From assembly GCA_964502635.1 (NCBI GenBank), contig CAZCXI010000001.1:1-60447 (forward strand): a DNA stretch of 60,447 nucleotides. The letters are read 5' to 3'. The translations under genes and the position numbers were made by a program. The notes below the pieces were generated by a model. The model was given only the letters and a program-made list of their open reading frames with translations, made no database searches and was not told the DNA's origin. Source of the stretch: an uncultured Desulfobacterales bacterium. Lineage in GTDB: Bacteria > Desulfobacterota > Desulfobacteria > Desulfobacterales > C00003060. Below are positions 15,622-58,266 of this stretch, in pieces (position 1 is the stretch's first letter; each line of letters starts with the position of its first letter).

Positions 15622-15846
15622 CTAGAATTGTATCTGGATCCTCTTCTGGTTTGCCCCGTTATCATTTACGGAAAGGAAGACCTTGCCCAGCCGCTCGCAC
15701 CAGGTGCGCACATCTCTCTCGAAGGTGAGGCAGTCTCCCAATACCTCCAAAATGTCACCGTGCTTCATGTCCGGGGCCTTCACGGCGATCTTAAGGACCG
15801 GCTGGGGGCATTTCTGGCCGAGCGTGTCTAATACTTCTAACGTCAT
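15622..15846 (-). CDS. TusA-like sulfurtransferase
   Basis: CPQP active-site motif (LGQKCPQPVLK). GAGGAGAA RBS before ATG 15846. About 80 percent identical by eye to 58042..58266. Confidence 0.8.
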   Translation of the reverse strand: MTLEVLDTLGQKCPQPVLKIAVKAPDMKHGDILEVLGDCLTFERDVRTWCERLGKVFLSVNDNGANQKRIQIQF

Positions 15847-16253
15847 AATGAGTTCTCCTCTCAACCGTTTCAATACCAGAATACTACACCGGTCTTTCCA
15901 CTAGCAGGAATTATGCCTAAATGGTCGCGATGTCATCATTCCAAGTAATATCAAATAATTGAGACTCTTTTATAGCAGCGTCTCGATGTCAAAGTCTGGA
16001 TGAATTTGATCCAAATGCTCCCGTTTTGTCAAAGTATTGACATTTGGTCATGACAGGCTGAGAAGGCCTGAGCAGGTTGTACGTGAGACATGTCTGGGAA
16101 TGAAGGGAGGCATGCTGGTGCAAGGAGCTTATAAGCCGACTTCAAGGAAGGCGTAAAGAAGAGTCCCTACCGGCTCCCATTGGGATAGCGGAGGCACCTG
16201 TGTATGGCGGACGTTATAATTTTGTCACTTTATGTTCCCCTGATTTTTTCCAA

Positions 16254-24762: not shown

Positions 24763-24806
24763 TTAACCCTAGCGTTGGTGCGCGGTTTTACCAACGCTAG
24801 GGTTAA
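24763..24806. terminator. Perfect 17-bp stem hairpin at a gene 3' end
   Basis: ttaaccctagcgttggt (24763-24779), a 10-nt loop, then accaacgctagggttaa (24790-24806). The right arm contains the stop codon of the 24803..25426 gene. There is no clear U-tract on the minus strand. Confidence 0.5.
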
Positions 24807-25426
24807 TACACGAGTACTAACCCGAGATGCGATATGAAAGGTACGTCTGATGGTGTGGTAGCCGTTCCAACGGGATAGATATCCCAGCCTGCCCGTGCTG
24901 CCATCTTGTAGGCATCCATTCCCACCGCATGCATGGAAGGCCTCCCCTTCAAAGGATGCCGGCATGACTTTTCGGCTTGCAAAGCGCTGCAATCCTCATT
25001 CAAGCAAAGGGTGGTCTTGCACGAGGCTCCGCCAAACCCAACGGCCAGATAGTAGCCATCATAATATGCCTGTGCCTCGATCTTTGATACAATTTCAAGA
25101 TTCTTCACCTTCATCTCGTGGCTGCTCGCACCGTCTTTCTCATAAGGCCCGTCCACTTTGAAGAGGATAGCGTATTGGAAGCCCTCAACGACTGTTTTAA
25201 CCCATTCCGCATCGGGCGTTTGAGGTGGACAATTGATGTTTGTCCCGCTTACTGGACATTTAGGAAATAAGCATTTAGCCACTACTCTGCGGTCAACAAC
25301 CACGTCATTAGATCGTATGATTCTGGCGGCCGTGGCCCCCAGTTCGACAGCTTTTTGCCTGTATCCTTCCAGATCGCTACGAAGGCTCTGTTCTGAAATC
25401 TCGTGTGCAATTCTGCGAAGCATCAC
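24803..25426 (-). CDS. DUF2284-like predicted metal-binding protein
   Basis: Cys pattern CLFPKCPVSGTNINCPP ... CKTTLCLNEDC ... C, as I recall for DUF2284. 207 aa. Confidence 0.5.
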   Translation of the reverse strand: MMLRRIAHEISEQSLRSDLEGYRQKAVELGATAARIIRSNDVVVDRRVVAKCLFPKCPVSGTNINCPPQTPDAEWVKTVVEGFQYAILFKVDGPYEKDGASSHEMKVKNLEIVSKIEAQAYYDGYYLAVGFGGASCKTTLCLNEDCSALQAEKSCRHPLKGRPSMHAVGMDAYKMAARAGWDIYPVGTATTPSDVPFISHLGLVLVY

Positions 25427-25675: not shown

Positions 25676-26125
25676 AGAACACTCCTGGCAGATTGATATG
25701 CATAGACCATCGGCCCTCCGGTTCTGAGAGGCAGGCCCCAGGTGAGCATGACTCACCAGGGGCCTGAAACAGGAGAAAAGAGATGAAGCCTAGCAGCTTC
25801 ATCCGAACACGGGGCCTTTGAGTGGAGGGTCAGCGCCATCAAGATCCCGTATGTTTATTATCTCAACACGTCACACAAGAAGTCCAATAGCAAATATCAA
25901 TCAATCGGTATGGCTGATATGGAAAAAATCTATAGAATAGACAAGAACCCTTAGGATTGTATTGTAAATTTCAATAACGATAGCCCACCATTATTGATAT
26001 TACATATTTGACACCTGTGTCTAAAGTAGAGAAAATTGATCGATTTTGCCTAATGGCAGCGCTTTGCCTGCTGAGCAAAAGCAGCTGTGGACGGCCTCAC
26101 TTCCGCCATGAAAAGGAAAGGTCAT

Positions 26126-26722
26126 ATGGAAACATTGAACTGCCGAGGGCTTGCCTGTCCCCAACCGGTGCTCCGGACAAAGCAGTTTATTGAATCCAAT
26201 CCGCAGGCCTTAGAATTCACGGTCGTAGTCGACAATGCCGCCTCTGCCCAAAACGTGTTGCGCTTTGTGGAAAGCCAGGGTTGCACTGCGTCCCTTCAGC
26301 AAACGGGTTCTGAGTTTGAGATTAAGGCCGTGAGGTCCCAAGAGACCATGGGTGAACCGGCTGAAAAAGACGTGGCAGAGACCAGCCAAAAAACCCTGGT
26401 ACTGATCACCAAAAATACCATGGGCTCTGGTGACGATCTTTTGGGAGCGGGCCTCATGTTGAATTTCTTGAAAACGATTAACGAGATGGGAGAGTCCCTC
26501 TGGAGACTGATTTTCTTAAACAGCGGGGTGAAGCTGACCATCGAAGGGGCCGAGACTTTGCCCGTCATACAACAACTCGAGGCCGAGGGTGTCAGTGTCC
26601 TGGTATGCGGCACCTGTTTGAATCATTTTAATCTGCTGGAGCAAAAAAAGGTCGGAGAAACCACCAACATGTTGGACATTGTCACCAGCATGCAACTTGC
26701 CGACAAAGTGATTAGCCCTTGA
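26126..26722 (+). CDS. yedF: Sulfurtransferase-like selenium-metabolism protein YedF (TusA domain plus DsrE-like domain)
   Basis: N-terminal TusA motif RGLACPQPVL, and a C-terminal domain with VLITKNTMGSGDDLLG and VCGTCLNHF, as in long-form YedF. Confidence 0.75.
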   Translation: METLNCRGLACPQPVLRTKQFIESNPQALEFTVVVDNAASAQNVLRFVESQGCTASLQQTGSEFEIKAVRSQETMGEPAEKDVAETSQKTLVLITKNTMGSGDDLLGAGLMLNFLKTINEMGESLWRLIFLNSGVKLTIEGAETLPVIQQLEAEGVSVLVCGTCLNHFNLLEQKKVGETTNMLDIVTSMQLADKVISP

Positions 26723-26761
26723 CGGGCTTGAGAACCCGAACTTGAACTTATCTCGAACAGC

Positions 26762-28036
26762 ATGAATGAACAGTACGAAAAAATGTGGGAGGAACTCGGG
26801 CTGGATATCACCGCCCATGACGGGCTGTTGAAGGTCCTTGGAAAATTCTATGGTGATATCTATCTCACCCAGGATAACCGCCTAAAAGGAATGGAATATT
26901 TAGATTTCGTGCTGTCGGAAGTCCACGGCCTTCGCATCAAGGAACTCCAAGATGCCAAAGCTGCCGGCAAGAAGATCATTGGCACCTTCTGCGTGTTTGT
27001 ACCGGAAGAGCTGATTTGGGCTGTCAACGGTGTGGCGATCGGCCTTTGCGCAGGCGCTGAGATCGGCAAAGAAGCAGCTGAAAAGATCTTACCCCGAAGC
27101 ACCTGTGCTTTGATCAAGTCCTTTGTGGGCTTTAAGCTCTCAAGGCTCTGTCCCTATATTGAATGCTGCGATTTAGTCGTCGGCGAAACCACCTGTGATG
27201 GCAAAAAAAAGGCCTACGAGATTTTCGAAGAATACGCGCCTATGTATATCCTGGAACTCCCGCAGATGAAAGGGCCATCCGATCGAGCCCTCTTTAGGAA
27301 TGAGGTGTTGAAGTTTAAGGCAAAGATGGAAGAGATCAGTGCCCAAGAAATTACGGCTGAAAAACTAAGGGAGGCTATCCAACTCATCAACAGCCGGCGG
27401 AGGGCTTTACAGAGGCTTAATGAGCTGCGCAAAGCCGTTCCCACACCGATTTCCGGAAGGGACGCACTGCTTATCAATCAGATCTCATTCTACGATGACC
27501 CAGTGCGGTTTACTGCCAAGATCAATGAGCTTTGTGATGAGCTTGAAAAGCGTGTGGCACAGGGCAAGGGGATCGTTGAAGATGGCATCCCGCGACTCAT
27601 GACCTCCGGGTGCCCCATGGCCGTGCCCAATTGGAAACTTCCTTACGTCGTGGAGTCCTCCGGGGCGGTCATCGTGGGAGAGGAATCGTGCATCGGCACA
27701 CGAAACACAAGGGATCTCGTGGATGAGACGGGCAACTCAGTGGAACATATGATCGAGGCCATCGTGGATCGTTATATGCGTATTGACTGTGCCTGCTTTA
27801 CCCCCAATCCTGAACGTCTCGAACACATTGTGGAGATGGCCAAGGACCTTAAGGTGGATGGTGTCATCCATTACGCCCTTCAATTCTGTCATCCTTATAC
27901 CATTGAAGCTTACAAGGTGGAAAAGGTCCTGGAGACGGAGAATATTCCTGTGCTCAGGATTGAGACAGACTACAGCATGGAAGACGTTGAACAGCTTAAA
28001 ACGCGCGTGGAGGCCTTCGTGGAAATTGTGAAGTAA
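26762..28036 (+). CDS. 2-hydroxyacyl-CoA-dehydratase-family protein, probably a double-cubane-cluster-type anaerobic reductase
   Basis: 424 aa, with conserved Cys spaced as in HgdB/BcrC-like proteins (FCVFVPEE, STCALIKS, GETTCDGKKK, SGCPM, EESCIG, DCACFT, LQFCHPY). Followed by its ATPase partner. Confidence 0.65.
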   Translation: MNEQYEKMWEELGLDITAHDGLLKVLGKFYGDIYLTQDNRLKGMEYLDFVLSEVHGLRIKELQDAKAAGKKIIGTFCVFVPEELIWAVNGVAIGLCAGAEIGKEAAEKILPRSTCALIKSFVGFKLSRLCPYIECCDLVVGETTCDGKKKAYEIFEEYAPMYILELPQMKGPSDRALFRNEVLKFKAKMEEISAQEITAEKLREAIQLINSRRRALQRLNELRKAVPTPISGRDALLINQISFYDDPVRFTAKINELCDELEKRVAQGKGIVEDGIPRLMTSGCPMAVPNWKLPYVVESSGAVIVGEESCIGTRNTRDLVDETGNSVEHMIEAIVDRYMRIDCACFTPNPERLEHIVEMAKDLKVDGVIHYALQFCHPYTIEAYKVEKVLETENIPVLRIETDYSMEDVEQLKTRVEAFVEIVK

Positions 28037-28050
28037 GCGGGGATACTTAG

Positions 28051-28800
28051 GTGCGTGTTGCCGGCATTGACATCGGTTCCCGAACCATAGAGCTGGTGGT
28101 GTTGAACGAAAGAGGGATTGTTCTAAGCAAACGGGCGGATTCTGGCTTTGACCCAACGGCGGGTGTCAAAAAACTCCTTGAAGAGGTTGACTATGACCGG
28201 ATCATGGCCACAGGCTATGGACGCCATCTCTTTGAACTTTCCTTTGTTGCGCCTACAGTCACAGAAATAAAGGCATACGCCATGGGCGCTCAGGCCATGT
28301 TTCGTGGCGTACGCACTATCCTTGATATTGGGGGCCAGGATTCCAAGGCCATTGCGGTAAACGATGTTGGCAAAGTGACCAAGTTCGAGATGAACGATCG
28401 CTGTGCGGCAGGAACGGGAAAGTTTCTTGAGATCATGGCAAGCAGCCTTGGCTACAGCCTTGATGACTTCGGGCGTGAGGCCCTGAAGGCTGAGAAGGAG
28501 CTTCAAATCAGCAGCATGTGTACGGTCTTTGCCGAATCTGAGGTCACCTCCCTGCTTGCCAAGGGGGAAAACCGGCGAGAAATTGCTATGGGTCTACACC
28601 ACTCTGTGGTGCGTCGTGCAGCTGGCATGCTGAGGCGGGTTTTGGTGGAAGGACCCGTTGTCTTTGCGGGAGGCGTGGCCAGGAATGCATGCATGCGTCA
28701 CCTGTTGGAAGAGACCCTCGAAAAAGAGATAACTGTTCCAGAAGACCCACAAATGGTGGGGGCCTATGGAGCAGCGTTGTTGGCAGCAGGCCAGGGATAG
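28051..28800 (+). CDS. Acyl-CoA dehydratase activase / BcrAD-BadFG-type ATPase (archerase)
   Basis: AGIDIGS phosphate-1 motif, MNDRCAAGTGKFLE cluster-ligand region and FAGGVARN. 249 aa. Confidence 0.85.
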   Translation: MRVAGIDIGSRTIELVVLNERGIVLSKRADSGFDPTAGVKKLLEEVDYDRIMATGYGRHLFELSFVAPTVTEIKAYAMGAQAMFRGVRTILDIGGQDSKAIAVNDVGKVTKFEMNDRCAAGTGKFLEIMASSLGYSLDDFGREALKAEKELQISSMCTVFAESEVTSLLAKGENRREIAMGLHHSVVRRAAGMLRRVLVEGPVVFAGGVARNACMRHLLEETLEKEITVPEDPQMVGAYGAALLAAGQG

Positions 28801-28936
28801 ACTTGTCTGATCAAAACCTGGAAAAGTCCTATAGGACTCCATATGCCAAAGGAGGTGATGCCGATCTGAACGAAAGCTTTCCTTAAAGATGGCTCGTTGT
28901 CTTGCCGAGCCGAACTCAAGAACTGGAGGAATGAAA

Positions 28937-30097
28937 ATGAAGAAATTGGTAGTGTTAACAAACATGATGATTGTGCTGTTTCTTGTTTGCACCATGGTGA
29001 GCCCTTCCTGGGCCGGAATCAAGATGGAAATTGATGAACAGACCAAGGGAGAGATCGGCATCTGGATGCAGACTTGGTATCAGTGGGTTGAAGATGGCAA
29101 GGGTGATGAAGATTTGAACGACTTCCTGATCCGGCGGGCCTATCTGTATCTGAAAGGTGATGTGACCCAGTATGTGAGCTTCTTCACCCATATTGCCTCG
29201 GATAAGGTCGGCGCAGAGGGGTTGGATAAGCCAGGTATCGGCCTTGGGAGCGGCGTTGCGTGGCGAGATCTGTGGATCACCTTGAACCTGGACGAGGCCT
29301 TTAAGATCCAGATGGGACGCATGTATGTGCCCCTGACCAGAAACTACGGCACGACATCCACCAAGGCGATGTTAACCATGGACCTCCCGTTTCTCCAGGG
29401 GGGCTCGCGGGGCGGTATCTTCTATGCCCAGAAGGTGGGGCGAGATGACAGTGTCACCCTGTGGGGGAATCCTTTTGATGGCAAGCTGCAATACCGCTTC
29501 ATGATTTCCGAAGGGGTTGAGGGTGACAACAATCCCGAAGACAACCTGCGGTTCGTGGGCCGGTTGTCTTTGAGTTTGCTCGAGCCCGAAACCGCTTGGT
29601 TTAACAAGGGGACATACCTCGGGAAGAAAAAGGTCTTGAGCCTTGGCCTGGGCTTCCAGAGTCAAGACGATCTCACATTAGGTGGCGTTGAGGGTGAGGA
29701 TAATCAGGTCTGGACGGCAGACGTCTTCTTTGATCATCCGGTGGGAGAGGGTGCGGTCACATTTGAAGCGGCCTACATCGATATCGACAATTGCACAGAG
29801 ACCCAGCCCCAGATGTACACGGACTTGGCCGCTGGTGATGACGCCGAGAACTGGTACATTAACGCAGGCTATCTTTTCCCCGGCACCCTCGGCATAGGCC
29901 AAGTTCAACCGTATATCCGGTATGAAACAGTCGATGTTGATGAGAAGAATGAAACCGATTTCTGGAGTGGGGGTGTCAACTACTATATGAAAGGACACAA
30001 TTGCAAGTTGACCGCAGATTACATGCACGTTGATCCAGACAACGACGAAAAAGACGAAAGGGACATCTTCACGTTGCAGTTCTGTATTGGATTCTAA
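28937..30097 (+). CDS. Outer-membrane beta-barrel porin-like protein
   Basis: Signal peptide ending SWA-G, alternating amphipathic strands, and the C-terminal FTLQFCIGF with terminal Phe. GGAGGA is 6 nt before ATG 28937. Confidence 0.55.
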   Translation: MKKLVVLTNMMIVLFLVCTMVSPSWAGIKMEIDEQTKGEIGIWMQTWYQWVEDGKGDEDLNDFLIRRAYLYLKGDVTQYVSFFTHIASDKVGAEGLDKPGIGLGSGVAWRDLWITLNLDEAFKIQMGRMYVPLTRNYGTTSTKAMLTMDLPFLQGGSRGGIFYAQKVGRDDSVTLWGNPFDGKLQYRFMISEGVEGDNNPEDNLRFVGRLSLSLLEPETAWFNKGTYLGKKKVLSLGLGFQSQDDLTLGGVEGEDNQVWTADVFFDHPVGEGAVTFEAAYIDIDNCTETQPQMYTDLAAGDDAENWYINAGYLFPGTLGIGQVQPYIRYETVDVDEKNETDFWSGGVNYYMKGHNCKLTADYMHVDPDNDEKDERDIFTLQFCIGF

Positions 30098-30245
30098 ACT
30101 GGGATAAACTTGGCCTTGGGGGAATTGAGGCCCTCAAGGCCAAACTTTTTCCAAAAATCACCCAAACGGGGAAACCTCTGGGAGACATCGCGTGAGCCCC
30201 CGCTGGAGCTGTTGGTCCATCTTGGGGCTCATGGGCAACATTTCA

Positions 30246-32277: not shown

Positions 32278-32479
32278 GACCGCATGCAAAATTTGGGGGG
32301 AATGGTAGCCCGAATGAGAAAGGACCACAACACCTCGTCACTCCCCTGCCTGGGTTTTCTGATTGGGAGGTCGGTTTGGCTCAGGCCCGAGGCAGCTGAC
32401 GAAGGAGTGCAGTACTGCAAGAATTGCCTTCTGGTTCCATCCATTCACTGTCTATTCCCCCCAAATTTTGCATGCGGTC
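32278..32479. repeat. 202-bp cassette bounded by perfect 26-bp inverted repeats, containing an inverted Tat-signal mini-ORF
   Basis: gaccgcatgcaaaatttggggggaat (32278-32303) is the exact reverse complement of 32454-32479. On the minus strand the interior encodes MDGTRRQFLQYCTPSSAASGLSQTD..., which is homologous to the start of the hydrogenase small subunit at 32637. Confidence 0.8.
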
Positions 32480-32636: not shown

Positions 32637-34001
32637 ATGAATTTGAGAATTACGAGAAGGCAGTTTCTACAGTATTGTACTGCCTCTGCCGCTGCCTTGG
32701 GCCTGAGCCAAACCGACCTCCTGAAGCTGGAAGAGGTTTTGGCCACACCCAACACGGGGTGTTCGAGCCCCACCCCCTCGGTGATCTGGCTTTCAGGACA
32801 GGCTTGCACGGCTTGCCAGATCTCCATGCTCAACAGGGTGGCCATGGTTACGGGGGGCTACTATGACGGTGACATGATCGATGCTCTGTATTCGACCGCA
32901 TCTCCGTTGCCGCCGCCCTATCCGCAAGCCCCCGTGGGCACGGGAACACCGGCGGACCCCGTGGGTCTGGAGCTCGATGTGGTCAAAGACGTGGCAGACT
33001 TGGTCGTTGGCGACGCGGTGAGTGCCGTGGTTCCCCAACTCCAGCCGTCCCCGGGAAGCCCGAGGGCAGGGTGGGCGCCATTTCCCAACGGCTACATCAC
33101 CCTGGAGTGGATCAGCACTACCATGGCCGGCGCAGGCGAGCTGACCGTGCGTCATCTCCAGAGCATCGTAGAAGGGGGACCCTTTATCCTGCTTTTGGAC
33201 GGGTCAATTCCCACGGCTTCGCCAAGCGACCCCACACTGCAGACGAGAAACGAAAAGGCCTGCTTTGTTCTTGACAATGTGGACTACCCGGAATGGCCGG
33301 CCGGAACCGGTGCCAAGGTCATCAGCGCACTGAACGCCGGGCCGGTCACGCTGGCCAACTGCCTGCGATGGATATGCGACACCAACGGTGCGAACTGCCT
33401 CGCGGCCATTGCCACAGGGACTTGTTCGTCCTATGGCGGAATCCCTGCGGCCCAGGGCAGCCCCACGGGGGCTACCTCCATGGAGGCTTTCTTTGCGCAA
33501 GAAGGAATTACCACGCCGGTGGTCAATGTGCCCGGCTGTCCGCCCCACCCGGATTGGATGGTCTATCCAGTGGCCTATTATCTGATCCACAGCGCCCTGC
33601 CGGAGCTGGATCAGTGGGGAAGGCCAAAGGCGGTCTTCAGCGGTTCTTCAGATGGCGAGCCCTTCTGCTACGACTGCCCGAACAAGCCCACCCAAGGGAC
33701 TCCCGATGCGGCTCAAGAGTTGGGGGATTCGGGTTGTTTGGGCGGCCTCGGGTGCAAAGGCCCTTACACCTTTGGTGATTGCCCGGTCCGTCAGAAGAAC
33801 ACGGCAGACGACGGTACGTTGATGAACTGGTGCGTAGGGGCCCAGGGATCAGGTGCTCCGTCAGGTCACGTGGGTAGTGGTATCGGTGAAAGCCGTCATC
33901 CCTGCCAGGGATGTATCCAACCCGATTTTCCGGATTGGTCCGGGTTGACAACATTCGATCAAAAAACCAACAGAAAAATCAAGGGATTCTATAACCCATA
34001 A
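32637..34001 (+). CDS. [NiFe]-hydrogenase small subunit, Tat-exported, unusually long
   Basis: Twin-arginine signal ITRRQFLQY and Fe-S ligand contexts GQACTACQIS, GTCSSYGG, PGCPPHPDW, CYDCP, GCLGGLGCKGPYTFGDCP and HPCQGC. No C-terminal transmembrane helix. Confidence 0.85.
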   Translation: MNLRITRRQFLQYCTASAAALGLSQTDLLKLEEVLATPNTGCSSPTPSVIWLSGQACTACQISMLNRVAMVTGGYYDGDMIDALYSTASPLPPPYPQAPVGTGTPADPVGLELDVVKDVADLVVGDAVSAVVPQLQPSPGSPRAGWAPFPNGYITLEWISTTMAGAGELTVRHLQSIVEGGPFILLLDGSIPTASPSDPTLQTRNEKACFVLDNVDYPEWPAGTGAKVISALNAGPVTLANCLRWICDTNGANCLAAIATGTCSSYGGIPAAQGSPTGATSMEAFFAQEGITTPVVNVPGCPPHPDWMVYPVAYYLIHSALPELDQWGRPKAVFSGSSDGEPFCYDCPNKPTQGTPDAAQELGDSGCLGGLGCKGPYTFGDCPVRQKNTADDGTLMNWCVGAQGSGAPSGHVGSGIGESRHPCQGCIQPDFPDWSGLTTFDQKTNRKIKGFYNP

Positions 34002-36532: not shown

Positions 36533-37843
36533 TCAATCGGTCAGTCTGAAGGGTTCGTAATCCCTTGGAACGTAGGGCCTTTCGATCCCGCTCAGTTGGC
36601 AGCCCAGAAGGCATGATCGGTCGGTGTAATTCAACAGGGTTAACATCAATTCCTGCCCCCGCAATAGTCCTAGGCACCCCGTGGCTGCACTCGCCTCGTC
36701 AAAGGACGCAACCTCATCGCGTCGAACATTTGGACCCACGAGTACCACGGGCACGGGCTCTCCAGAGTGGATCAAAGAAGATATGCTCGGCGTGGAATGA
36801 TCTGCAGTAACTGTGACCAACAAGTCATCTCTGTCTTCCACCGCATCCACCAGCTCATCCAAGCCGCGATCCAAGGTGGCGATGGCAGCTTCCTTGCGCC
36901 TTGGATCTCCTTTGTGGGCCGCCTCATCCGGGACCTTTGTATGGACGTGGATAAAATCATGGGCATTAACCGCTAAGGCCAGACGGATCCTTTCTCTGAG
37001 ATCCTCATCGGCCTTGTCGGTGTCTTTTGCCCGGACGAAGGTTAGGCCAAGCTCGTGGGCCAAACCTCCATACACGGATGGTGACGCGATCAGCATGCCG
37101 GCAAGACCCCAGCGCTGATCAAAAGGCTCCTGGATGATACGCCGGCCACAACGCTGCGTGACAAGAAAGTTAGCAGGCGGGAGCTTTCTGGCCTCACGCA
37201 AGCGGTTCGTTTCGTGGCTGATTAGCACCCTGTGGCAGTGAGTCAGATACTCGTTGAGGGCTTTTGCCGTGCGCGCCGCGTCCTCAGGCTCTGCATTGTC
37301 GCGAAGAGGCACGATACGGGCTACAGTGCGACCGACCAGGATAGGATCGGAGTCAGATACGTAAGGTGAGGCCTGGCCGTTCAGGACGAGTATGGCATCA
37401 TTTCGGCGGGTCTGCTGGAGGCGGAAGTCGATGCCCTCTGCTTCATAGGTGGAAACAGCAGCGAAAAGTCCTCCCATTTCTGGTGAATCCGCCTCAATAT
37501 CATCACGCCCCTGAGTCAGGATCGGTACGCTGCCTTTCCAACTCACACCTGAAACGTGCGCCAGGCACAGGACGTCTCTGTCATCAAAGGCCACACCCTC
37601 TCCCACCGCCTCCAGGAGCCCCCGGCCAGGAAAATTCTTCAGATCATAGCCAAAGAGCAGGTAGTGGGCGGTCTCGCTCGGTAGACACTGGCCAGGCAAT
37701 GCAGCATGGAAAAGCCCGTTACTACCCAGGCGAGCTAATCGATCCAGATTGGGCGTGGCGGCCGCTTGCAGGGGGGTGCGATGATTCAGTATCTCATACG
37801 ATCGATCACCGAGGCCGTCTAGAAGAATAAGGATGATTTTCAT
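36533..37843 (-). CDS. apgM: Cofactor-independent phosphoglycerate mutase, archaeal-type (ApgM-like metalloenzyme superfamily)
   Basis: MKIILILLDGLGD, TPNLDRLA and TADHSTP motifs. 436 aa. Confidence 0.7.
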   Translation of the reverse strand: MKIILILLDGLGDRSYEILNHRTPLQAAATPNLDRLARLGSNGLFHAALPGQCLPSETAHYLLFGYDLKNFPGRGLLEAVGEGVAFDDRDVLCLAHVSGVSWKGSVPILTQGRDDIEADSPEMGGLFAAVSTYEAEGIDFRLQQTRRNDAILVLNGQASPYVSDSDPILVGRTVARIVPLRDNAEPEDAARTAKALNEYLTHCHRVLISHETNRLREARKLPPANFLVTQRCGRRIIQEPFDQRWGLAGMLIASPSVYGGLAHELGLTFVRAKDTDKADEDLRERIRLALAVNAHDFIHVHTKVPDEAAHKGDPRRKEAAIATLDRGLDELVDAVEDRDDLLVTVTADHSTPSISSLIHSGEPVPVVLVGPNVRRDEVASFDEASAATGCLGLLRGQELMLTLLNYTDRSCLLGCQLSGIERPYVPRDYEPFRLTD

Positions 37844-37882
37844 CAGAAACCTGGAGGGGACAATTCTGGATTCTTACTTGCC

Positions 37883-38731
37883 TTAAGCATGAGATATGAG
37901 GCGTGCTGAGGGCTCTTGATGATCGGACCTGCTGTCATGATCCGATTGTGTCAAATACTCGTCTATAACCTTCTTTGTTTGCAACAATCCGTCAGTTTCT
38001 CTAACTTCAAGAACCCACCACTCGCAACCAATATCCCGCAGGATGTTCAGACGGTCTTCGATGTCTTCCAGTCGCTCGGGTGGTATATGTCCTACCCCGG
38101 AAACTTCCGTGTAATATACATGGGCATTGAGAGCGCGATCTGAATGAGGACTAACAAAATCCTCAATGCCATAGGACTGACTCCGGACCGACTCGCACGC
38201 GTGGGCGTGACCGATATCAAAAGTGACTGCAGCGCCGCTTCCTCGGATGAGTTTTTCAAAGAGGTGGGGCCTGCTCGTCCATCCCCAGGCGAGGTTCTCC
38301 AGGCAGATGGTTACCCCCCTGCGTGCACCGTATTGAACCAGGTTTGCCAGGTTCTCAATCGTTGCCTCCCATGACAGGGGCTCTGTGGAATCGTGGCCAA
38401 GGCCGATGTGGATTGTCAGGTATCGTCCTTCCACTTTAGAAACCAAGCGGATGATACGACGAAAAACGGCCTCGGCCGCCTTGGCCTCCCGTGGGTCCTC
38501 GTGGCCCAAGTCTATCTGATAAAAAGGACAGTGAAAACGAACCTCCAGGGAATCCAAAAGGGACAGGCTCCTCACCCATTTTGATTCTTCTAAAGGTGTT
38601 GCAGGCAGGATACTGGGATCGAACGACCAGTCGATGCCTGAAAACCCGTGACGAAGGGCAAATGCCCTGATCTCTGTGACCTCTTTCAGGAAATTGCACA
38701 TGGCCAATTTAGGTTTCATAGTGTTATTCAT
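37883..38731 (-). CDS. Sugar phosphate isomerase/epimerase (xylose-isomerase-like TIM barrel)
   Basis: 282 aa with the pattern of AP-endonuclease-2/xylose-isomerase-like barrels (ICLENL, FDIGHAH). Confidence 0.6.
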   Translation of the reverse strand: MNNTMKPKLAMCNFLKEVTEIRAFALRHGFSGIDWSFDPSILPATPLEESKWVRSLSLLDSLEVRFHCPFYQIDLGHEDPREAKAAEAVFRRIIRLVSKVEGRYLTIHIGLGHDSTEPLSWEATIENLANLVQYGARRGVTICLENLAWGWTSRPHLFEKLIRGSGAAVTFDIGHAHACESVRSQSYGIEDFVSPHSDRALNAHVYYTEVSGVGHIPPERLEDIEDRLNILRDIGCEWWVLEVRETDGLLQTKKVIDEYLTQSDHDSRSDHQEPSARLISHA

Positions 38732-41440: not shown

Positions 41441-41644
41441 GACCATGTTGCATACAAGGCTTGGGGAGACAGACACTGACGGCGTATGCATGTCACTAGA
41501 AGGCAATTCTTGCAGTACTGCACAACCTCCGCACCTGCTTTGGGTCTGAGCCCGACCGACCTCCTGAAGCCAGAGAAGGCACGGGCAGAACAAAATGATT
41601 GTTTCCATCCGTCAGCGCTATTCCCCCCAAACTCTGCATGCGGT
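41441..41644. repeat. Second, degenerate copy of the 32278-32479 cassette, in the opposite orientation, with an orphan Tat-signal ORF start
   Basis: attccccccaaactctgcatgcggt (41620-41644) matches 32454-32478 with 2 mismatches. The left end gaccatgttgcatacaaggcttgggga is degenerate. The interior encodes MHVTRRQFLQYCTTSAPALGLSPTDLLK on the plus strand with no hydrogenase body behind it. Confidence 0.7.
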
Positions 41645-42373: not shown

Positions 42374-43441
42374 TCAAGCGATTTGCAGTTTGCCCTTCGC
42401 ATCTAAGCCAATGACCTCGCCGATAATCGTCGCTGATCGCACTCCCTCATGTTTTAATTCCTCAAGGCAGGCCTCCCCCTCATCCGCACCAATGGAGATA
42501 ACCAACCCGCCTGAGGTTTGGGGATCAAAGATGAGGTCCATGAGAACCGTTTCCACGCCAGGCTTGATTTCCACCATGTGCTCACAGAAATGCCTAGTCG
42601 CATAACTTCCGGCCGGTATCAGACCCATCAAGGCATACTCCTTGGCCTCAGGAATGATCGGGATCTTGTCAGCATAGACAGCGATCTCCACATGGCTGGC
42701 TCTGGCCATTTCCAAAAGGTGTCCCCCGAGGCCAAAACCGGTCACGTCCGTACAGGCATGAGTTTTGTATTTCAGCATAATCTGTGATGCCTGGCCGTTA
42801 AGGGTCGCGGCGATCTCGATCATCGTCTCCAGCGCTTTTTCGCTAGCCAATTTCCCCTTAACGGCGGTGGCAATGATACCCGTTCCGATGGGTTTGGTCA
42901 GTATGAGTTGATCCCCGACCTCGGTACCTTGATTGGCCAGGATTTTCTGGGGATGGACAACGCCTGTCACAGAAAGGCCATACTTAAGCTCCTGATCATC
43001 CACACTGTGTCCCCCTAGCAGGACCGCACCTGCCTCGTGAATCTTTTCCAGACCCCCTCGCAGGATTTCTTTGAGGATCTCCTTAGGCATATCCGTGATT
43101 GGAAAACAGACGATGTTCATAGCGGTCAGCGGCCTGCCACCCATGGCGTAGACATCGCTTAAGGCATTGGCTGCCGCAATGCGGCCGAAGTGATAGGGGT
43201 TGTTTACGATAGGCGTAAAAAAATCGAGGGTCTGTACCAGGGCCATATCGTCGTTCAGCTTATAGACGCCGGCATCATCAGAGGTCTCTATGCCTACAAG
43301 GAGATTAGGGTGCCTAATCACGGGCAGGTCCCTCATCACCTCTTCCAGGTCCCCTGGACTCAGTTTGGCAGCTCAGCCCGATGCCCTAACCTTTTCGGTC
43401 AAGTTAATAGGGTCATCGAGGGGGCTCAACGCATCAGGCAT
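42374..43441 (-). CDS. selD: Selenide, water dikinase (selenophosphate synthetase), selenocysteine-containing form
   Basis: The 321-aa ORF carries DDAGVY, GGHSVDD and TDVTGFGL motifs. It extends upstream through an in-frame TGA (43373-43375) to ATG 43441, giving MPDALSPLDDPINLTEKVRASG-U-AAKLSPGDL, the canonical G-(C/U)-x-x-K SelD active site. Confidence 0.9.
43344..43375 (-). promoter_or_regulatory. Sec UGA codon plus candidate SECIS hairpin of selD
   Basis: UGA, then 14 nt downstream UCCAGG-GGA-CCUGGA (43358-43344), a G-rich apical loop at the distance expected for bacterial SECIS elements. Confidence 0.55.
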
Positions 43442-44336
43442 ATTTCTTGGCAGCGCACCTTCCATCGCCTTCCTTTGCTATCTCCTCCAAGACCGACTCC
43501 AAGGCCTTTGGGATCTCCTTGACTATTGCAGCCACCTGTGTTGCCGGGGTTGGATTGGCAAGGGCACCCGCCAGGCGATTCACCCTGGCAGCGATGGTCG
43601 CCGCCTGTGCCACGGGGTATCCAGCGTAGGTGAGTGCGGCCACGATGCCCGTCAGCGTATCTCCTGTGCCACCAATGGGCTCCAGGGTCGTCACGTTCGG
43701 GGTGTCAACAGCAGCCAACAGCCCGTCCTTGGTGCATATATAATCTTTCGACCCCTTGATCAATAGTGTTTTGGCAGCATTTTCCCCTTCAAATGCCCTT
43801 TTGATCAGATCAGGAACGTTCTTCTCCTCGTGAAGAATGAAACTCCGGGTGTAAAACGGGTGAGGGGCCAACTCGTCGGCCAAGAAGGCCAATTCTCCGA
43901 TGTCAGGAGTAAAAAGGTCGTAACATGGCGAAAACCCGCTCATTTTGGCCGCATACATGTAACCTGCATCGGCAATCAGCAGCGGGAGTTTGCCTCTTTC
44001 TTCCAAGGCCAACAAGATCCGGTTATGCCAGTCAACATCAGGCTGAAGGTAATGAAAGGTAACAACCTTAGCACCCATAGCTGGAAGCCGGGTCTTCAGA
44101 TGCTCGTATAGCTTTCTGCTGCCGTCTCCTACCCCCTCATCTCCTACGAGAAAACAGAAAGGCTTGGAGAGGCCAAGCGTCTCACATGCCATGGATGTGG
44201 CGGCAATCATGGCAGGTGTCCCTCGGTTGACCGACGTTTCATGGCCATCCAAAAACAAGCAATCCCCCTTCAGTGTAACCGTCCCTGAAACCAGGGGGTA
44301 ATACTTATCCGGAACCGTACCGATCAAAGCGAGCAT
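43434..44336 (-). CDS. YjeF_C-like / ribokinase-fold carbohydrate-kinase-family protein of unknown role
   Basis: GGTGDTLTG anion-hole motif near the C-terminus. 300 aa. Overlaps the selD start by 8 nt and the upstream gene by 13 nt. Confidence 0.6.
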   Translation of the reverse strand: MLALIGTVPDKYYPLVSGTVTLKGDCLFLDGHETSVNRGTPAMIAATSMACETLGLSKPFCFLVGDEGVGDGSRKLYEHLKTRLPAMGAKVVTFHYLQPDVDWHNRILLALEERGKLPLLIADAGYMYAAKMSGFSPCYDLFTPDIGELAFLADELAPHPFYTRSFILHEEKNVPDLIKRAFEGENAAKTLLIKGSKDYICTKDGLLAAVDTPNVTTLEPIGGTGDTLTGIVAALTYAGYPVAQAATIAARVNRLAGALANPTPATQVAAIVKEIPKALESVLEEIAKEGDGRCAAKKYA

Positions 44337-44857
44337 TGACGCTTTATCTCTTCATAAGCCAATTGCAGGGCATACCCGCAAAGGGTATGACCAATTTCCC
44401 TCGGAGCAGGCGACTGTCGAAGATCTTTTCCCACCAGCATGGCCCCCAGGTATGGCACATCCGGGCAACCGCCCCCGGAAATATTCACAATCTCAAGGGT
44501 CTCTTTCTCTATCGTAAGTTTCATGTTGGCCGCGCGCACCATAAGGTATTGCCCATAATCTGTTGTCTTGAACAGTTCAACCGGTTTGAGGAGCGGATCA
44601 TCCACAGGCACTGCTTCCAACGGTTGAACCTTATTAGCTTCCAGTACCCTCAAAATATTCAACTGTTCGACCAGGGGAAATTCGATCACCATGTCACAGC
44701 CGGTCCGCAGCTCGGGGGGCGGCCCCATGACACGAACCTTCCACCCCTTTTTCTCCAAAAGGGATTTGGCCTTGATCACTTCGCTGGTATTGTGAAAGGA
44801 AAGAAACCCTCGATCCGGGCTCTTTTGCTGGGAGGCAGCCCTTTTTCCAAATGCCAT
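44324..44857 (-). CDS. DUF3343-like (putative Se/S carrier) domain protein with an extra C-terminal Cys-containing half
   Basis: The N-terminal FHNTSEVIKAKSLLEKKGWKVRVMGPPPELRTGCDMVIEF fits my recollection of DUF3343. The C-terminal half contains SGGGCPDVPYL. 177 aa. Confidence 0.5.
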   Translation of the reverse strand: MAFGKRAASQQKSPDRGFLSFHNTSEVIKAKSLLEKKGWKVRVMGPPPELRTGCDMVIEFPLVEQLNILRVLEANKVQPLEAVPVDDPLLKPVELFKTTDYGQYLMVRAANMKLTIEKETLEIVNISGGGCPDVPYLGAMLVGKDLRQSPAPREIGHTLCGYALQLAYEEIKRQCSL

Positions 44858-44863
44858 GGCTCT

Positions 44864-45082
44864 TTACTCTTTCTTGATCAGGATCTTGTACCCTGTACCT
44901 GATTCGGCAACGCCCGCTACCTCCCAACCCTGGCTTTCGGCCGCACGGCTCACGTTTTCCTTTGACGTGTCCGTGTCCACCAGGACCTCAATTTCCCCTT
45001 TGTTAAGGTCCCTGATTCTATTCAAGGTCATCAGCACAGGTTGTGGGCAAGAAAGGCCGCTTGCATCAACGATTTCAGCCAT
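44864..45082 (-). CDS. TusA-like sulfur/selenium carrier
   Basis: SGLSCPQPVL motif. GGAGA RBS before ATG 45082. 72 aa. Confidence 0.8.
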   Translation of the reverse strand: MAEIVDASGLSCPQPVLMTLNRIRDLNKGEIEVLVDTDTSKENVSRAAESQGWEVAGVAESGTGYKILIKKE

Positions 45083-45099
45083 CGTAATCTCCTTCCTTG

Positions 45100-46191
45100 T
45101 TAGGCCTTTTGTCTCATGGTCAGTCCAATGAACGAGCACACCAGAAGGCCAATAATGACAGCAGCAATACCGTGAGGACCAACCCCTTTGGGTGAGCTTG
45201 CCAGCCCAAAATTGTGGGCAAAACCAGCACCAACAATCATACCCAGGACAAAGACGGCCGCATCACCATCACCTTCTCCTGCCAGGAATAACTGGCGGCC
45301 CGGGCAGCCACCGGCAAGGCAAAAGGCTAGCCCCGCCACGACCATGCCCCCGAAGTTCCAAAGCTGCATAGTGTGAGCAACGGGTTGTTTGGCAAATCCT
45401 GGATGAAACTGTCCCACAATCAGGTTGGTGAGAAAAGCGAAGGCAATCAGTGCCAGCACACCGTAGAAAAGATAAGGTATGCGAAACAAAATCAGGTCTC
45501 GAAAGGCCCCCATGGTGCAAAATCGGCTACGCTGTGCCAGAAAACCGATGGCAAGACCTATGACAAGAGAAAGTGCAATAGACGCATGCATGGCCCCCGG
45601 ACCCTTCATGCTGTAAAAAAGGATCCCGCTTTTTGGCTCCCCTTTGATCTGGGGAAAACTTAGGAGCAGCACCAGAAAGCCAAGCATGATCAGGGGCATG
45701 AGCCAGCCCACAGATACGTATGTCTTGTTGCTCCGGCCAAGGTTATATCCGCCCTTGAGGAAAAAGGTGCCGATCCATATGCCAACAATCAATCCAAGGA
45801 GGCCAAGGATGGCGTTCCCGTCACCCGCGGAAAGACGCAGCATGGCACGCCAGGGGCACCCCAAGAAAACCAGCGCCCCGATCATGGCAAAGACTCCCAG
45901 CACAAAGCGCACAATAGGAGCAGAACCAGCCCTCGGCCTGAACTCCCTGAACGCATAGGCTGCAATCAACGCCCCGAGGACAAAACCGATGATCTCAGGG
46001 CGCATGTACTGAACCACGGCCGCCCGATGGATGCCGATGGCGCCTGCGATGTCCCGTTCAAAGCAGGCCACGCACACCCCCATATTTCCCGGGTTGCCAA
46101 ATTTTTGCAACAGAGGAGCAAACACGCCAATGAATGCCCCAACAGACACGATTCCCCACCGCGTGCCCAGAAAGTTTTTGACTTGCCCCAT
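45100..46191 (-). CDS. yedE: YedE-family putative selenium/sulfur transporter
   Basis: Polytopic membrane protein with the GNPGNMGVCVACFERD motif and a second CPGRQ half-site. 363 aa. Confidence 0.75.
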   Translation of the reverse strand: MGQVKNFLGTRWGIVSVGAFIGVFAPLLQKFGNPGNMGVCVACFERDIAGAIGIHRAAVVQYMRPEIIGFVLGALIAAYAFREFRPRAGSAPIVRFVLGVFAMIGALVFLGCPWRAMLRLSAGDGNAILGLLGLIVGIWIGTFFLKGGYNLGRSNKTYVSVGWLMPLIMLGFLVLLLSFPQIKGEPKSGILFYSMKGPGAMHASIALSLVIGLAIGFLAQRSRFCTMGAFRDLILFRIPYLFYGVLALIAFAFLTNLIVGQFHPGFAKQPVAHTMQLWNFGGMVVAGLAFCLAGGCPGRQLFLAGEGDGDAAVFVLGMIVGAGFAHNFGLASSPKGVGPHGIAAVIIGLLVCSFIGLTMRQKA

Positions 46192-58039: not shown

Positions 58040-58041
58040 CG

Positions 58042-58266
58042 ATGGCAGTGGAAATTCTAGACACCCTGGGTCAGAAGTGCCCTCAGCCGGTCCTAAAGAT
58101 CGCCGTGAAGGCTCCGGACATGGAACCCGGTGATATCTTGGAGGTATTGGGAGACTGCCCGACCTTTGAGAAAGATGTGCGCACCTGGTGCCAGCGGCTG
58201 GGCAAGGTCTTTCTTTCCATAAAGGAAGAAGGGAGAAACAGGAAACGGATCCAGATACAGTTTTGA
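58042..58266 (+). CDS. TusA-like sulfurtransferase, last gene of the hdrA-mvh operon
   Basis: LGQKCPQPVLK motif. AAGGAGAGG RBS. Starts 2 nt after the mvhA stop. Paralog of 15622..15846. Confidence 0.8.
   Translation: MAVEILDTLGQKCPQPVLKIAVKAPDMEPGDILEVLGDCPTFEKDVRTWCQRLGKVFLSIKEEGRNRKRIQIQF

Follow-up and report, generated by a model that had tools for sequence, protein, structure and literature searches.

A double-cubane cluster protein and its ATPase between yedF and an ExtI-like porin gene: a predicted selenium-acquisition operon in an uncultured Desulfobacterales bacterium

To our knowledge, the physiological substrate of the double-cubane cluster proteins (DCCPs) has not been established since their cluster was described in 2018. 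The crystallised DCCP of C. hydrogenoformans (6ENO, 7YYL) is encoded next to its reductase DCCP-R (CHY_0487/0488), an ATPase of the archerase type that carries two cluster cysteines; the pair was described without reference to a selenium context. Members of the family share a seven-cysteine motif, in which six residues are cluster ligands and one is a nearby cysteine, and class-I DCCPs reduce small molecules via narrow substrate channels (PMC7317905). The class-II DCCP of E. coli, YjiM, has the same motif and forms a similar two-gene module with its activase YjiL (PMC7317905), but it is devoid of the N-terminal channel-closing helices and may accept larger substrates. The 2-hydroxyacyl-CoA dehydratases and class-I benzoyl-CoA reductases belong to the same superfamily (PF06050) and use the same type of ATP-dependent activator.

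The association of DCCPs with selenium is not new, as a phylogenetic correlation between DCCP and SelD was published by Haft in 2022/23. In that work 955 of 970 high-scoring NF040772 proteins came from SelD-positive genomes, and DCCPs were present in 4.7% of genomes as against 38% for SelD (10.1101/2022.07.06.499078), so that a DCCP is not generally required. The evidence (Haft & Gwadz, bioRxiv 2022 / J Bacteriol 2023) consists of phylogenetic profiling and of adjacency to the SAO cassette, with YedF unmentioned. YedF is known from YedE/YedF/DUF3343/SelD clusters (Lin et al. 2015), for which a STRING table from Slackia lists a 'CoA-substrate-specific enzyme activase' and a '2-hydroxyglutaryl-CoA dehydratase subunit' among the partners, neither being discussed or recognised as a DCCP system (PMC5322559). 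For the porin ExtI of Geobacter sulfurreducens there is experimental evidence of a role in the uptake and reduction of selenite (PMC5877670), a link that is also attributed to Jahan 2019 in PMC8981825. Papers tying a DCCP to a selenium reaction were not found in the searched literature, nor was any experiment on, or explicit description of, a yedF-DCCP-ATPase-porin operon.

In the window, i.e. the whole stretch of 60,447 nucleotides that was analysed, a DCCP/DCCP-R pair has yedF on one side and a selenite-type porin gene on the other:

26008..26036, + strand, sigma-70-like promoter candidate TTGACA-17-GAAAAT (10/12 matches), upstream of yedF
26126..26722, + strand, yedF, long form, 198 aa, TusA domain with CPQP and DsrE-like domain with CGTC
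26762..28036, + strand, class-I (long-form) DCCP by family membership, 424 aa, NF040772 match
28051..28800, + strand, predicted DCCP reductase, BcrAD/BadFG 'archerase' ATPase, 249 aa, GTG start, TIGR00241
28937..30097, + strand, ExtI-like outer-membrane porin with signal peptide, 386 aa, NF040900, Porin_O_P, Porin_4
30110..30143, + strand, intrinsic terminator, 13-bp stem with 8 GC pairs and a T-run

The four genes are co-oriented, with gaps of 39 nt between yedF and the DCCP gene and 14 nt between the DCCP and ATPase genes. As the + strand shows no terminator-like site from the ATPase gene to the porin gene (28800 to 28937) and a strong terminator follows the latter, they are predicted from the sequence to form a single transcription unit, part of a selenium-acquisition island. 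The promoter candidate is a consensus match only and sits in a 370-nt divergent intergenic region. The yedF start is an ATG preceded by a AAGGAAAGG ribosome-binding site, and GGAGG lies 7 nt ahead of the porin ATG at 28937, upstream of which alternative ATGs are found at 28889 and 28931. No RNA families were detected in the window using Rfam with gathering thresholds.

In profile searches, YedF (TIGR03527, 220.9 bits, cut-off 110), the DCCP (NF040772 double_cubane, 493.7 bits, cut-off 350) and the ATPase (TIGR00241, 231.3 bits, cut-off 125.4) all exceeded the curated family cut-offs, and the porin exceeded that of NF040900 porin_ExtI by a narrow margin (169.5 bits, cut-off 150; profile positions 3-381 of 403). 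The initial annotation had described a long-form YedF with a CPQP-containing TusA domain and a DsrE-like domain, followed after 39 nt by a 424-aa protein of double-cubane type, after a further 14 nt by a BcrAD/BadFG-type ATPase and then by a porin-like gene. Coordinates, gaps and family assignments were all reproduced, and the porin can now be named more specifically.

The DCCP aligns over residues 7-424 with 6ENO/7YYL (E about 1e-145) and is 50% identical over its full length to the C. hydrogenoformans enzyme. The published seven-cysteine spacing, written as a regular expression, matched neither the window DCCP nor the C. hydrogenoformans sequence (even in the latter, the spacings are one or two residues away from those published), and conservation was therefore judged from an alignment. 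In it, all 67 homologues, the C. hydrogenoformans enzyme among them, have cysteine at the positions of C77, C96, C115, C145, C310, C343 and C376 (spacings X18-X18-X29-X164-X32-X32). Thus, all seven motif cysteines are present, six of them ligands in the family, where eight cluster-ligating cysteines had initially been expected. With its 424 aa, and with an alignment to the 421/422-aa crystallised protein that begins at residue 7, the window protein is predicted to retain the N-terminal extension that closes or narrows the substrate channels; by family membership it is a class-I DCCP in the sense of Jeoung/Dobbek. Its score places it within the >400-bit set of Haft & Gwadz, and SelD and Sec decoding are shared with that set; here, in contrast to the profiling evidence, the DCCP gene directly shares an operon with yedF and a porin gene. 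SAO genes were not seen near the window operon. When the window was translated in all six frames, the DCCP profile matched once only.

Two related functions were considered and rejected. As an acyl-CoA dehydratase beta subunit the protein scored 120.5 bits against the HadC cut-off of 700, and no second PF06050 gene is found in the window; as a benzoyl-CoA reductase it reached 93 of 453.8 bits (BzdN) and 53 of 421 bits (BcrC), with no partner subunit. CoA-pathway genes are not found nearby. The protein therefore groups with genuine DCCPs and not with dehydratase beta subunits having an alpha partner elsewhere, which would have refuted the initial annotation.

The sequence of the ATPase matches MbdQ, HadI, HgdC and DCCP-R, and its cluster cysteines C118 and C157, of the [4Fe-4S]-bridging type, are invariant in 52 of 52 sequences. 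As it fits DCCP-R, dehydratase activators and benzoyl-CoA reductase subunits alike, its assignment as DCCP-R is drawn from its adjacency to the DCCP gene, which is accompanied by no second HGD-D subunit. In YedF, the Pfam domains PF01206 (TusA) and PF02635 (DsrE) carry the motifs GLACPQP and CGTC; C11, P12 and P14 and the C161-G-T-C164 motif are invariant among 10 diverse YedF proteins. The equivalog score and this CPxP/CGxC architecture are those of the long-form YedF described by Lin et al. A solved structure of long-form YedF was not found, the only match being a weak one of the TusA domain to 3HZ7, and the literature consulted yielded no biochemical study of selenium binding or transfer by YedF.

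YedF co-occurs with SelD-dependent selenium use, since a second selenium cluster (42.4-46.2 kb), 14 kb away, encodes a selenocysteine-containing SelD:

45100..46191, - strand, yedE, putative selenium transporter, first gene of the cluster, Sulf_transp, 650 bits to the YedE profile
44864..45139, - strand, short TusA-like protein (CPQP), PF01206, 68.6 bits
44324..44857, - strand, DUF3343 (Se_S_carrier) fusion protein, 177 aa, PF11823, 80.6 bits
43434..44336, - strand, Carb_kinase-like protein (profile match)
42374..43465, - strand, selD, selenophosphate synthetase, 494 bits to the SelD profile

The representatives of the two profiles score 484 bits on TIGR04112 (YedE) and 357 bits on TIGR00476 (SelD). 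The in-frame TGA of selD, at 43373-43375, is translated within the motif RASG-U-AAKLSP. The window thus carries a cluster of the type described by Lin et al., but its yedF stands apart from selD, as the first gene of an operon that it shares with the DCCP and porin genes.

The porin resembles ExtI of G. sulfurreducens in its full-length profile match, signal peptide, OprP-like porin domains and selenium context. Unlike the ext cluster, the window contains no ext cytochrome genes and no rhodanese match that could correspond to the lipoprotein ExtH, and the porin gene is flanked by the ATPase gene and small unknown ORFs, its operon partners (YedF, DCCP, ATPase) being cytoplasmic; it is therefore called ExtI-like.

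A linkage unique to this genome would likewise have refuted the initial annotation, but it recurs in many phyla. Of 80 genomic DCCP loci, 16 have a full-length yedF next to the DCCP gene; these represent no fewer than eight phyla and come from Thermodesulfobacteriota, Chloroflexota, Bacteroidales, WOR-3, Thermoanaerobacteraceae, Cloacimonadota, Myxococcota and Actinomycetota. Co-directional clusters with further selenium genes have the order selB-DCCP-ATPase-yedF-yedE-tusA-DUF3343-selD (L032), sclA-selB-sclA-yedF-DUF3343-selD-DCCP-ATPase (L053) and DCCP-ATPase-selD-yedF (L161); in L083, yedF-DCCP-ATPase is followed by selB. The four-gene operon of the window is found again in L171, with a porin 74% identical, and porin homologues at 74-89% identity are always located downstream of yedF. 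In a close relative yedF is adjacent to the porin gene with the DCCP and ATPase genes missing, which makes the latter an optional cassette. In E. coli, yjiM is presumably not adjacent to yedEF.

At least one of yedF, selB, selD, yedE, sclA-like and DUF3343 genes lies within 10 kb of the DCCP gene in 25 of 71 loci, a lower bound since ORF calling misplaced some ATPases and, in 8 loci, chose an antisense ORF over the DCCP. About two thirds of the DCCP loci have no selenium gene within 10 kb. Seen from the side of yedF, selD is the dominant neighbour (51 of 80 yedF loci, 64%), and DCCP is found in only 6 of the 80. Both the absence of selenium genes at most DCCP loci and this last count argue against a selenium reductase, as do the small share of genomes with a DCCP compared with SelD and the relative that has yedF and the porin gene but no cassette. 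Uptake genes also occur near DCCP genes: L083-85 have a TonB-dependent receptor, and PstSCAB-like ABC transporters are present in at least 8 loci. Further neighbours are SclA-like lyases (at least 6 loci), HdrD-like CCG proteins (at least 9) and molybdopterin oxidoreductases (at least 7). A different DCCP substrate could be indicated by the HdrD-like and PstS-like genes.

The best explanation, held with somewhat less than even confidence, is that the operon is a unit of a selenium island in which the DCCP reduces a small selenium species to selenide. Such a species, most likely selenite/HSeO3-, would pass the outer membrane through the ExtI-like porin and reach the cytoplasm by way of YedE (45.1-46.2 kb). 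ATP hydrolysis by the homodimeric ATPase would drive electrons of low potential onto the [8Fe-9S] cluster, and the DCCP would reduce the selenium species beyond Se(0), as far as selenide. YedF, via its TusA cysteine and/or its CGTC pair, would capture the reduced selenium and relay it to the Sec-containing SelD (42.4-43.5 kb), which would then make selenophosphate. Such a cassette would probably widen the usable selenium sources of sulfidic, glutathione-poor anaerobes. The broader proposal, that DCCP and DCCP-R constitute a dedicated ATP-driven assimilatory selenium reductase of anaerobes (selenite/Se(0) to selenide, YedF and SelD), is possible but put forward more tentatively.

From the Se/H2Se potential (-0.40 V) and a pKa of 3.9, we calculated an E0' of about -0.72 V for Se(0)/HSe-, far below ferredoxin, which makes ATP coupling chemically sensible for the selenide step; a value of -730 mV for this couple was not found by text search of the literature. 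The S(0)/HS- couple lies at -0.27 V and needs no ATP coupling. Two further points count against the preferred explanation: thiol and thioredoxin systems are enough for selenite reduction in the organisms studied, and the recombinant C. hydrogenoformans DCCP is active on acetylene, azide and hydrazine. The earlier suggestion that the selenium species is bound to YedF during reduction appears doubtful, as the narrow channels of class-I DCCPs suit small molecules and the N-terminal extension is kept.

A rival explanation is that the DCCP reduces an unrelated small or organic substrate, the selenium link then being indirect, for example through a pathway with an obligatory selenoenzyme step or through shared anaerobe-specific islands. 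This reading, which we consider rather unlikely, accounts for the many DCCP loci without selenium neighbours, for the recurrence of HdrD-like proteins and molybdopterin oxidoreductases, and for the connection that Haft draws from DCCPs to Stickland metabolism and to the organometallic system SAO (10.1101/2022.07.06.499078). It accounts less well for the several phyla in which DCCP and ATPase genes are embedded among selB, yedF, yedE and selD in one co-directional cluster, and for their position inside a conserved yedF-porin unit in the window, which is tighter than a shared habitat explains.

Alternatively, selenium might serve the enzyme, YedF and SelD supplying it for a selenium-bridged analogue of the [8Fe-9S] cluster, i.e. 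for cofactor maturation. Haft raised this formal possibility, which is based on SelD being present in almost every genome with a DCCP, but it is improbable, as the C. hydrogenoformans DCCP produced in E. coli has a sulfide-bridged cluster and is active (PMC7317905). Moreover, yedF-porin pairs exist without a DCCP, and the outer-membrane and ABC uptake genes at DCCP loci suggest a flux of material and not a trace supply of cofactor.

Nitrogenase-like methylthio-alkane reductases cleave C-S bonds, and by analogy the DCCP might cleave or reduce organoselenium compounds (such as methylselenol, dimethylselenide or selenocyanate) for selenium recycling. A preprint on the mlp cluster draws a DCCP and its reductase with putative selenium genes and methyl-selenide methyltransferases (PMC10418091), and the SclA-like lyases that adjoin some DCCP genes would fit; yet no methyltransferase or corrinoid genes lie near the operon in the window and the porin and PstS-like neighbours suit an oxyanion better, so that there is little probability in this reading either. 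Least probable of all is a sulfur system, with YedF relaying persulfide in the manner of TusA/DsrE proteins and the DCCP reducing sulfur species in a sulfate-reducer-like host, for although TusA and DsrE are sulfur-relay folds, two further TusA paralogues occur in the window and YedE relatives import thiosulfate (NCBIfam TsuA matches), YedF matches a selenium-specific equivalog, its homologues mostly adjoin selD, DCCPs track SelD (Haft) and, by established redox chemistry, the reduction of sulfur species needs no potentials that justify ATP coupling. Of the "selenium or sulfur species" proposed initially, selenium is favoured by the recurring selD, selB, yedE and DUF3343 neighbours and by the Sec-containing SelD of the window, and sulfur is not.

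The locus joins two questions, the natural substrate of DCCPs and the production and chaperoning of selenide for SelD in strict anaerobes without glutathione. As a recurrent compact operon it supplies concrete candidate substrates and a partner protein, and the optional cassette offers natural plus/minus comparisons. If the selenide-forming role is true, a double-cubane enzyme would for the first time have a physiological function, and selenophosphate synthesis would have its first dedicated selenide-producing enzyme. An enzyme with nitrogenase-like energetics would gain a role in trace-element assimilation, with a bearing on selenium cycling in sulfidic sediments, and annotation would be affected, as thousands of such genes are still called '2-hydroxyacyl-CoA dehydratase'.

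Divergently from the operon lies one further neighbour:

24803..25426, - strand, DUF2284 metal-binding protein, PF10050, 104.6 bits

A tblastn search of the 80 DCCP loci with the porin, the DUF2284 protein, orf89, orf84 and orf441 found no conserved partner, with one weak orf84 match. The DUF2284 protein, orf89, orf84 and orf441 were therefore left out of the system, and the link of the porin was drawn from its own homologues. The position of the Carb_kinase-like gene of the second cluster is also filled in the close relatives L166-168. The DUF2284 gene, absent from the 80 DCCP loci, is syntenic in the same relatives, and its product shows partial matches to the selenoprotein families MbdU and ArsM-DUF2284.

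The ORF calls reproduced exactly the positions and intergenic gaps given for yedF, the DCCP gene and the ATPase gene in the initial annotation, and the porin-like gene that had been placed after the ATPase passes the NF040900 model 'selenite/tellurite reduction operon porin ExtI' (169.5 bits, cut-off 150). Promoter and terminator sites were called by consensus scans.

Features of the predicted operon and its boundaries
26008-26036, + strand: promoter-like site upstream of yedF
26126-26722, + strand: yedF, ATG start with AAGGAAAGG ribosome-binding site
26762-28036, + strand: DCCP gene (424 aa), 39-nt gap after yedF
28051-28800, + strand: ATPase gene (249 aa), 14-nt gap after the DCCP ORF
28937-30097, + strand: ExtI-like porin gene, best start with GGAGG 7 nt upstream
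30110-30143, + strand: intrinsic terminator 3' of the porin gene, 13-bp GC-rich hairpin and T-run

An alternative, longer yedF ORF begins with GTG at 26087. The scan detected no terminator-like site between the ATPase and porin genes, and the transcription unit is predicted to comprise four co-transcribed genes rather than three. The porin ORF encodes a signal peptide and Porin_O_P and Porin_4 domains. In Geobacter, ExtI resides in the outer membrane, and mutants without it are impaired in reducing selenite and tellurite and in taking up selenite (PMC5877670; Jahan 2019 as cited in PMC8981825). In contrast to the Geobacter ext cluster, ext partner genes are missing around the window porin, which we therefore call 'ExtI-like'. 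A profile search of the window for a rhodanese gave no match. A conserved AAGGAGGTGATG box (28849-28862) precedes the porin start by ~75 nt and is kept at homologous positions in L166, L169, L170 and L171; in the window, a GGCTCG…CGAGCC hairpin (28892-28912) follows it. The region matched no Rfam family, and box and hairpin could form a leader or have a regulatory function.

The profile scans assign the other three products unambiguously at the sequence level, in agreement with their first identification. YedF carries TusA and DsrE domains (Pfam) and, at 220.9 bits, clears the cut-off of 110 set for the equivalog TIGR03527 'sulfurtransferase-like selenium metabolism protein YedF'. The ATPase, which keeps both cluster cysteines (C118 and C157), matches the acyl-CoA dehydratase activase model TIGR00241 with 231.3 bits. 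For the DCCP, the model NF040772 'double-cubane-cluster-containing anaerobic reductase' gives 493.7 bits against a threshold of 350; it reaches only 120.5 bits on HadC (cut-off 700) and 93 on BzdN (cut-off 453.8), which argues against its being an acyl-CoA dehydratase beta subunit. The DCCP aligns with the solved structures of the C. hydrogenoformans enzyme (6ENO, 7YYL; 50% identity, E ~1e-145) from residue 7 to the end and thus represents the long 'class I' form with an N-terminal extension. Eight cluster-ligating cysteines had been expected, but the family motif contains seven, six of them ligands (PMC7317905); all seven (C77, C96, C115, C145, C310, C343 and C376) are invariant in an alignment of 67 homologues.

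All four protein families are already known, and the association of DCCPs with selenium has been published as a correlation. Haft and Gwadz found 955 of the 970 NF040772 proteins scoring >400 bits in SelD-positive assemblies, SelD occurring in 38% of genomes, and proposed either a role in selenium-compound processing or a Se-bridged cofactor; YedF is not mentioned in their preprint (10.1101/2022.07.06.499078). DCCP and DCCPR were also drawn as 'putative selenium metabolism' genes in a 2023 preprint (PMC10418091). In Lin et al. (PMC5322559), a STRING table for Slackia names a 'CoA-substrate-specific enzyme activase' and a '2-hydroxyglutaryl-CoA dehydratase subunit' as partners of YedE/YedF/DUF3343. 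Full-text searches of available papers yielded neither an experimental DCCP-selenium link nor an explicit description of the yedF-DCCP-ATPase-porin operon.

The neighbourhood of the DCCP was examined by a DCCP-alignment scan with one genome per GTDB species, which gave 80 loci of 54-80% identity from many phyla. The linkage is not unique to this genome, as a full-length yedF (>=190 aligned residues, tblastn with the window YedF) lies beside the DCCP gene at 16 of them, including Chloroflexota (L044), Bacteroidales (L053), WOR-3 (L070), Thermoanaerobacteraceae (L071), Cloacimonadota (L072), Myxococcota (L074), Actinomycetota (L077) and several Thermodesulfobacteriota. Flanking ORFs were clustered de novo, representatives were assigned to families and loci were recounted by profile re-scan; the ATPase ranked first, ahead of the families tabulated here.

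Recurrent neighbours of DCCP genes (loci; representative match)
YedF: 15 (profile re-scan)
SelB: 10; TIGR00475, 303.5 bits
HdrD-like protein: 9; Fer4 and CCG domains
Rhodanese: 8; PF00581
PstSCAB-like ABC transporter: 8; PstS-family TIGR02136
SelD: 6; TIGR00476, 357 bits
SclA-like cysteine desulfurase: 6; TIGR01977
DUF3343/Se_S_carrier: 6; PF11823
YedE: 5; TIGR04112, 484 bits

By the same re-scan, at least one core selenium gene was present in the flanks of 25 of the 71 genome loci with a recovered DCCP; for a random 20-kb window, we roughly estimate the chance of a selenium locus at ~1-2%, given a few-Mb genome with a handful of such loci. Several loci combine these genes in one co-directional cluster, with the orders selB-DCCP-ATPase-yedF-yedE-tusA-DUF3343-…-selD (L032) and sclA-selB-sclA-yedF-DUF3343-selD-DCCP-ATPase (L053).

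The PstSCAB-like transporter genes lie downstream of the DCCP gene at L008, L009, L014, L037, L043, L051 and L067 and upstream at L011. In M. maripaludis, selenium starvation induces PstS1 (PMC11097638), and the transporter may serve to import selenium oxyanions across the inner membrane. The HdrD-like gene (Fer4 dicluster and CCG), mostly divergent and upstream, accompanies DCCP or yedF-DCCP at L001, L002, L030, L062, L081, L082 and L171 and is absent beside the window operon; its product could be the system's electron donor or a disulfide/selenotrisulfide reductase.

A reciprocal YedF-alignment scan of metagenomes gave 80 loci (50-93% identity). selD adjoins yedF in 51, mostly tens of nucleotides away, and the DCCP gene is found at six (4/22 among loci extending >=2.5 kb to each side), for instance in the orders DCCP-ATPase-selD-yedF (L161) and DCCP-ATPase-yedF-selD (L133). 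YedF is therefore foremost a SelD partner, the DCCP being a recurrent secondary partner.

Among the closest relatives, L083-85 (DCCP 93% identical) have the order yedF-DCCP-ATPase followed by selB; upstream, in divergent orientation, are genes for a TonB-dependent receptor and for another HGD-D homologue. The 86% relative L081 has no yedF nearby; at 4-8 kb downstream of its DCCP gene lie genes for SelD, a rhodanese and a transporter of the YedE type. Porin homologues are abundant and lie downstream of yedF in all three contexts examined. At L166-168 (porin 89% identical), the order PilZ, AMIN, DUF2284, small ORF, yedF, porin is syntenic with the window and continues with phosphomutase, AP_endonuc_2, selD, Carb_kinase, DUF3343, tusA and yedE, but lacks the DCCP and ATPase genes. 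At L169/170 (porin 80%), yedF-porin adjoins a PstSCAB and PhoU/LMWPc locus, and L171 (porin 74%) has the four-gene operon of the window, preceded by an HdrD-like gene and followed by tusA-yedE. In the junction alignment (window 26740-28840 against L166:6860-7000), the flanks align on both sides: the match to L166 runs to the yedF stop and resumes ~90 nt before the porin start, so that the DCCP and ATPase genes form a clean indel of ~2.1 kb. These two genes behave like an optional cassette in a conserved yedF-porin unit.

Profiles built from the neighbours of DCCP loci revealed a second, complete selenium cluster in the window.

Second selenium cluster (profile matches)
45100-46191, - strand: yedE
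44864-45139, - strand: short tusA
44324-44857, - strand: DUF3343/Se_S_carrier fusion
43434-44336, - strand: Carb_kinase-like gene
42374-43465, - strand: selD, in-frame TGA at 43373-43375

The TGA lies within the canonical motif …RASG-U-AAKLSP…, which makes selD a selenoprotein gene and indicates that the organism decodes selenocysteine; because of it, automatic ORF calling had cut selD to 321 aa. By the names of close homologues, the organism belongs among uncultured Desulfobacterales/Thermodesulfobacteriota.

From the observed parts, their order and their recurrent neighbours we infer a route in which the ExtI-like porin and YedE would admit small selenium species, the ATPase would drive energised electrons onto the double-cubane cluster, the thermodynamically demanding reduction of Se(0) to HSe- would fall to the DCCP and YedF would hand reduced selenium on to SelD. 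Such a selenium-reducing role of the DCCP is put forward tentatively, at a little short of an even chance. By our calculation from standard potentials, E0' of Se(0)/HSe- is ~-0.72 V with 1 M HSe- and remains as low as ~-0.54 V when HSe- is micromolar, which is below typical ferredoxins, whereas sulfur reduction (-0.27 V) needs no ATP. Reduction of selenium or sulfur bound to YedF had been proposed initially. The active site lies buried behind narrow channels, however, so that a free small selenium species is the more likely substrate, and YedF, which might act before catalysis, more likely acts after it. As the cassette is optional and DCCPs are much rarer than SelD, this would be an accessory route rather than a universal pathway, one that might give access to refractory selenium in sulfidic habitats.

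DCCPs reduce acetylene, azide and hydrazine with ATP in vitro, and CoA esters do not fit through the channels of class I (PMC7317905). A substrate unrelated to selenium, only indirectly linked to the selenium genes, is conceivable, if rather unlikely beside the co-directional selenium clusters. A Se-containing DCCP cofactor, as in the second proposal of Haft and Gwadz, seems improbable, and we give cleavage of an organoselenium compound the same low rank. Sulfur chemistry, for which ATP would be superfluous, is the least probable. With the window locus, its relatives with and without the cassette and the selenium operons of several phyla, the long-standing question of the DCCP substrate becomes directly testable.

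Several other features accompany these loci. A DUF2284 metal-binding protein gene (24803-25426, - strand) is divergent from yedF, syntenic in L166-168 and not found near other DCCPs; its best NCBIfam matches are partial, to the double-selenoprotein families MbdU and ArsM-DUF2284, the window copy having Cys. AP_endonuc_2 (xylose-isomerase-like TIM barrel) genes (window 36533-38731, - strand; also L081, L083 and L166-170) often pair with a phosphomutase-like metalloenzyme gene and recur beside yedF/DCCP/selD loci in this lineage. The TonB-dependent receptor of L083 (4458-6527), L084 and L085, divergent from yedF, was called as two ORFs (~465 and 204 aa), which a frameshift or a stop/Sec codon in frame could explain; after it come the second HGD-D homologue, shorter at 385 aa, and ExbBD-TonB. 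PhoU/LMWPc at L169/L170 is an ArsC-like fusion.

Three copies of an 85-87-nt segment (32366-32452, 32652-32736 and 41478-41579; 76-81% identity, one inverted), which codes for the Tat signal of the small NiFe hydrogenase subunit, flank a ~9-kb block of hydrogenase and other genes. Much of this block, including the hydrogenase genes, is missing from the syntenic relative L166, which suggests a rearrangement or insertion. Two more TusA-like paralogues (15622-15873, - strand; 58018-58263, + strand) lie in long inverted repeats of 75-82% identity, ~42 kb apart (14157-14528/59021-59392 and 15626-15859/58029-58262); one has histidine-kinase genes as neighbours, and beside the other lies a second gene for a NiFe hydrogenase large subunit.
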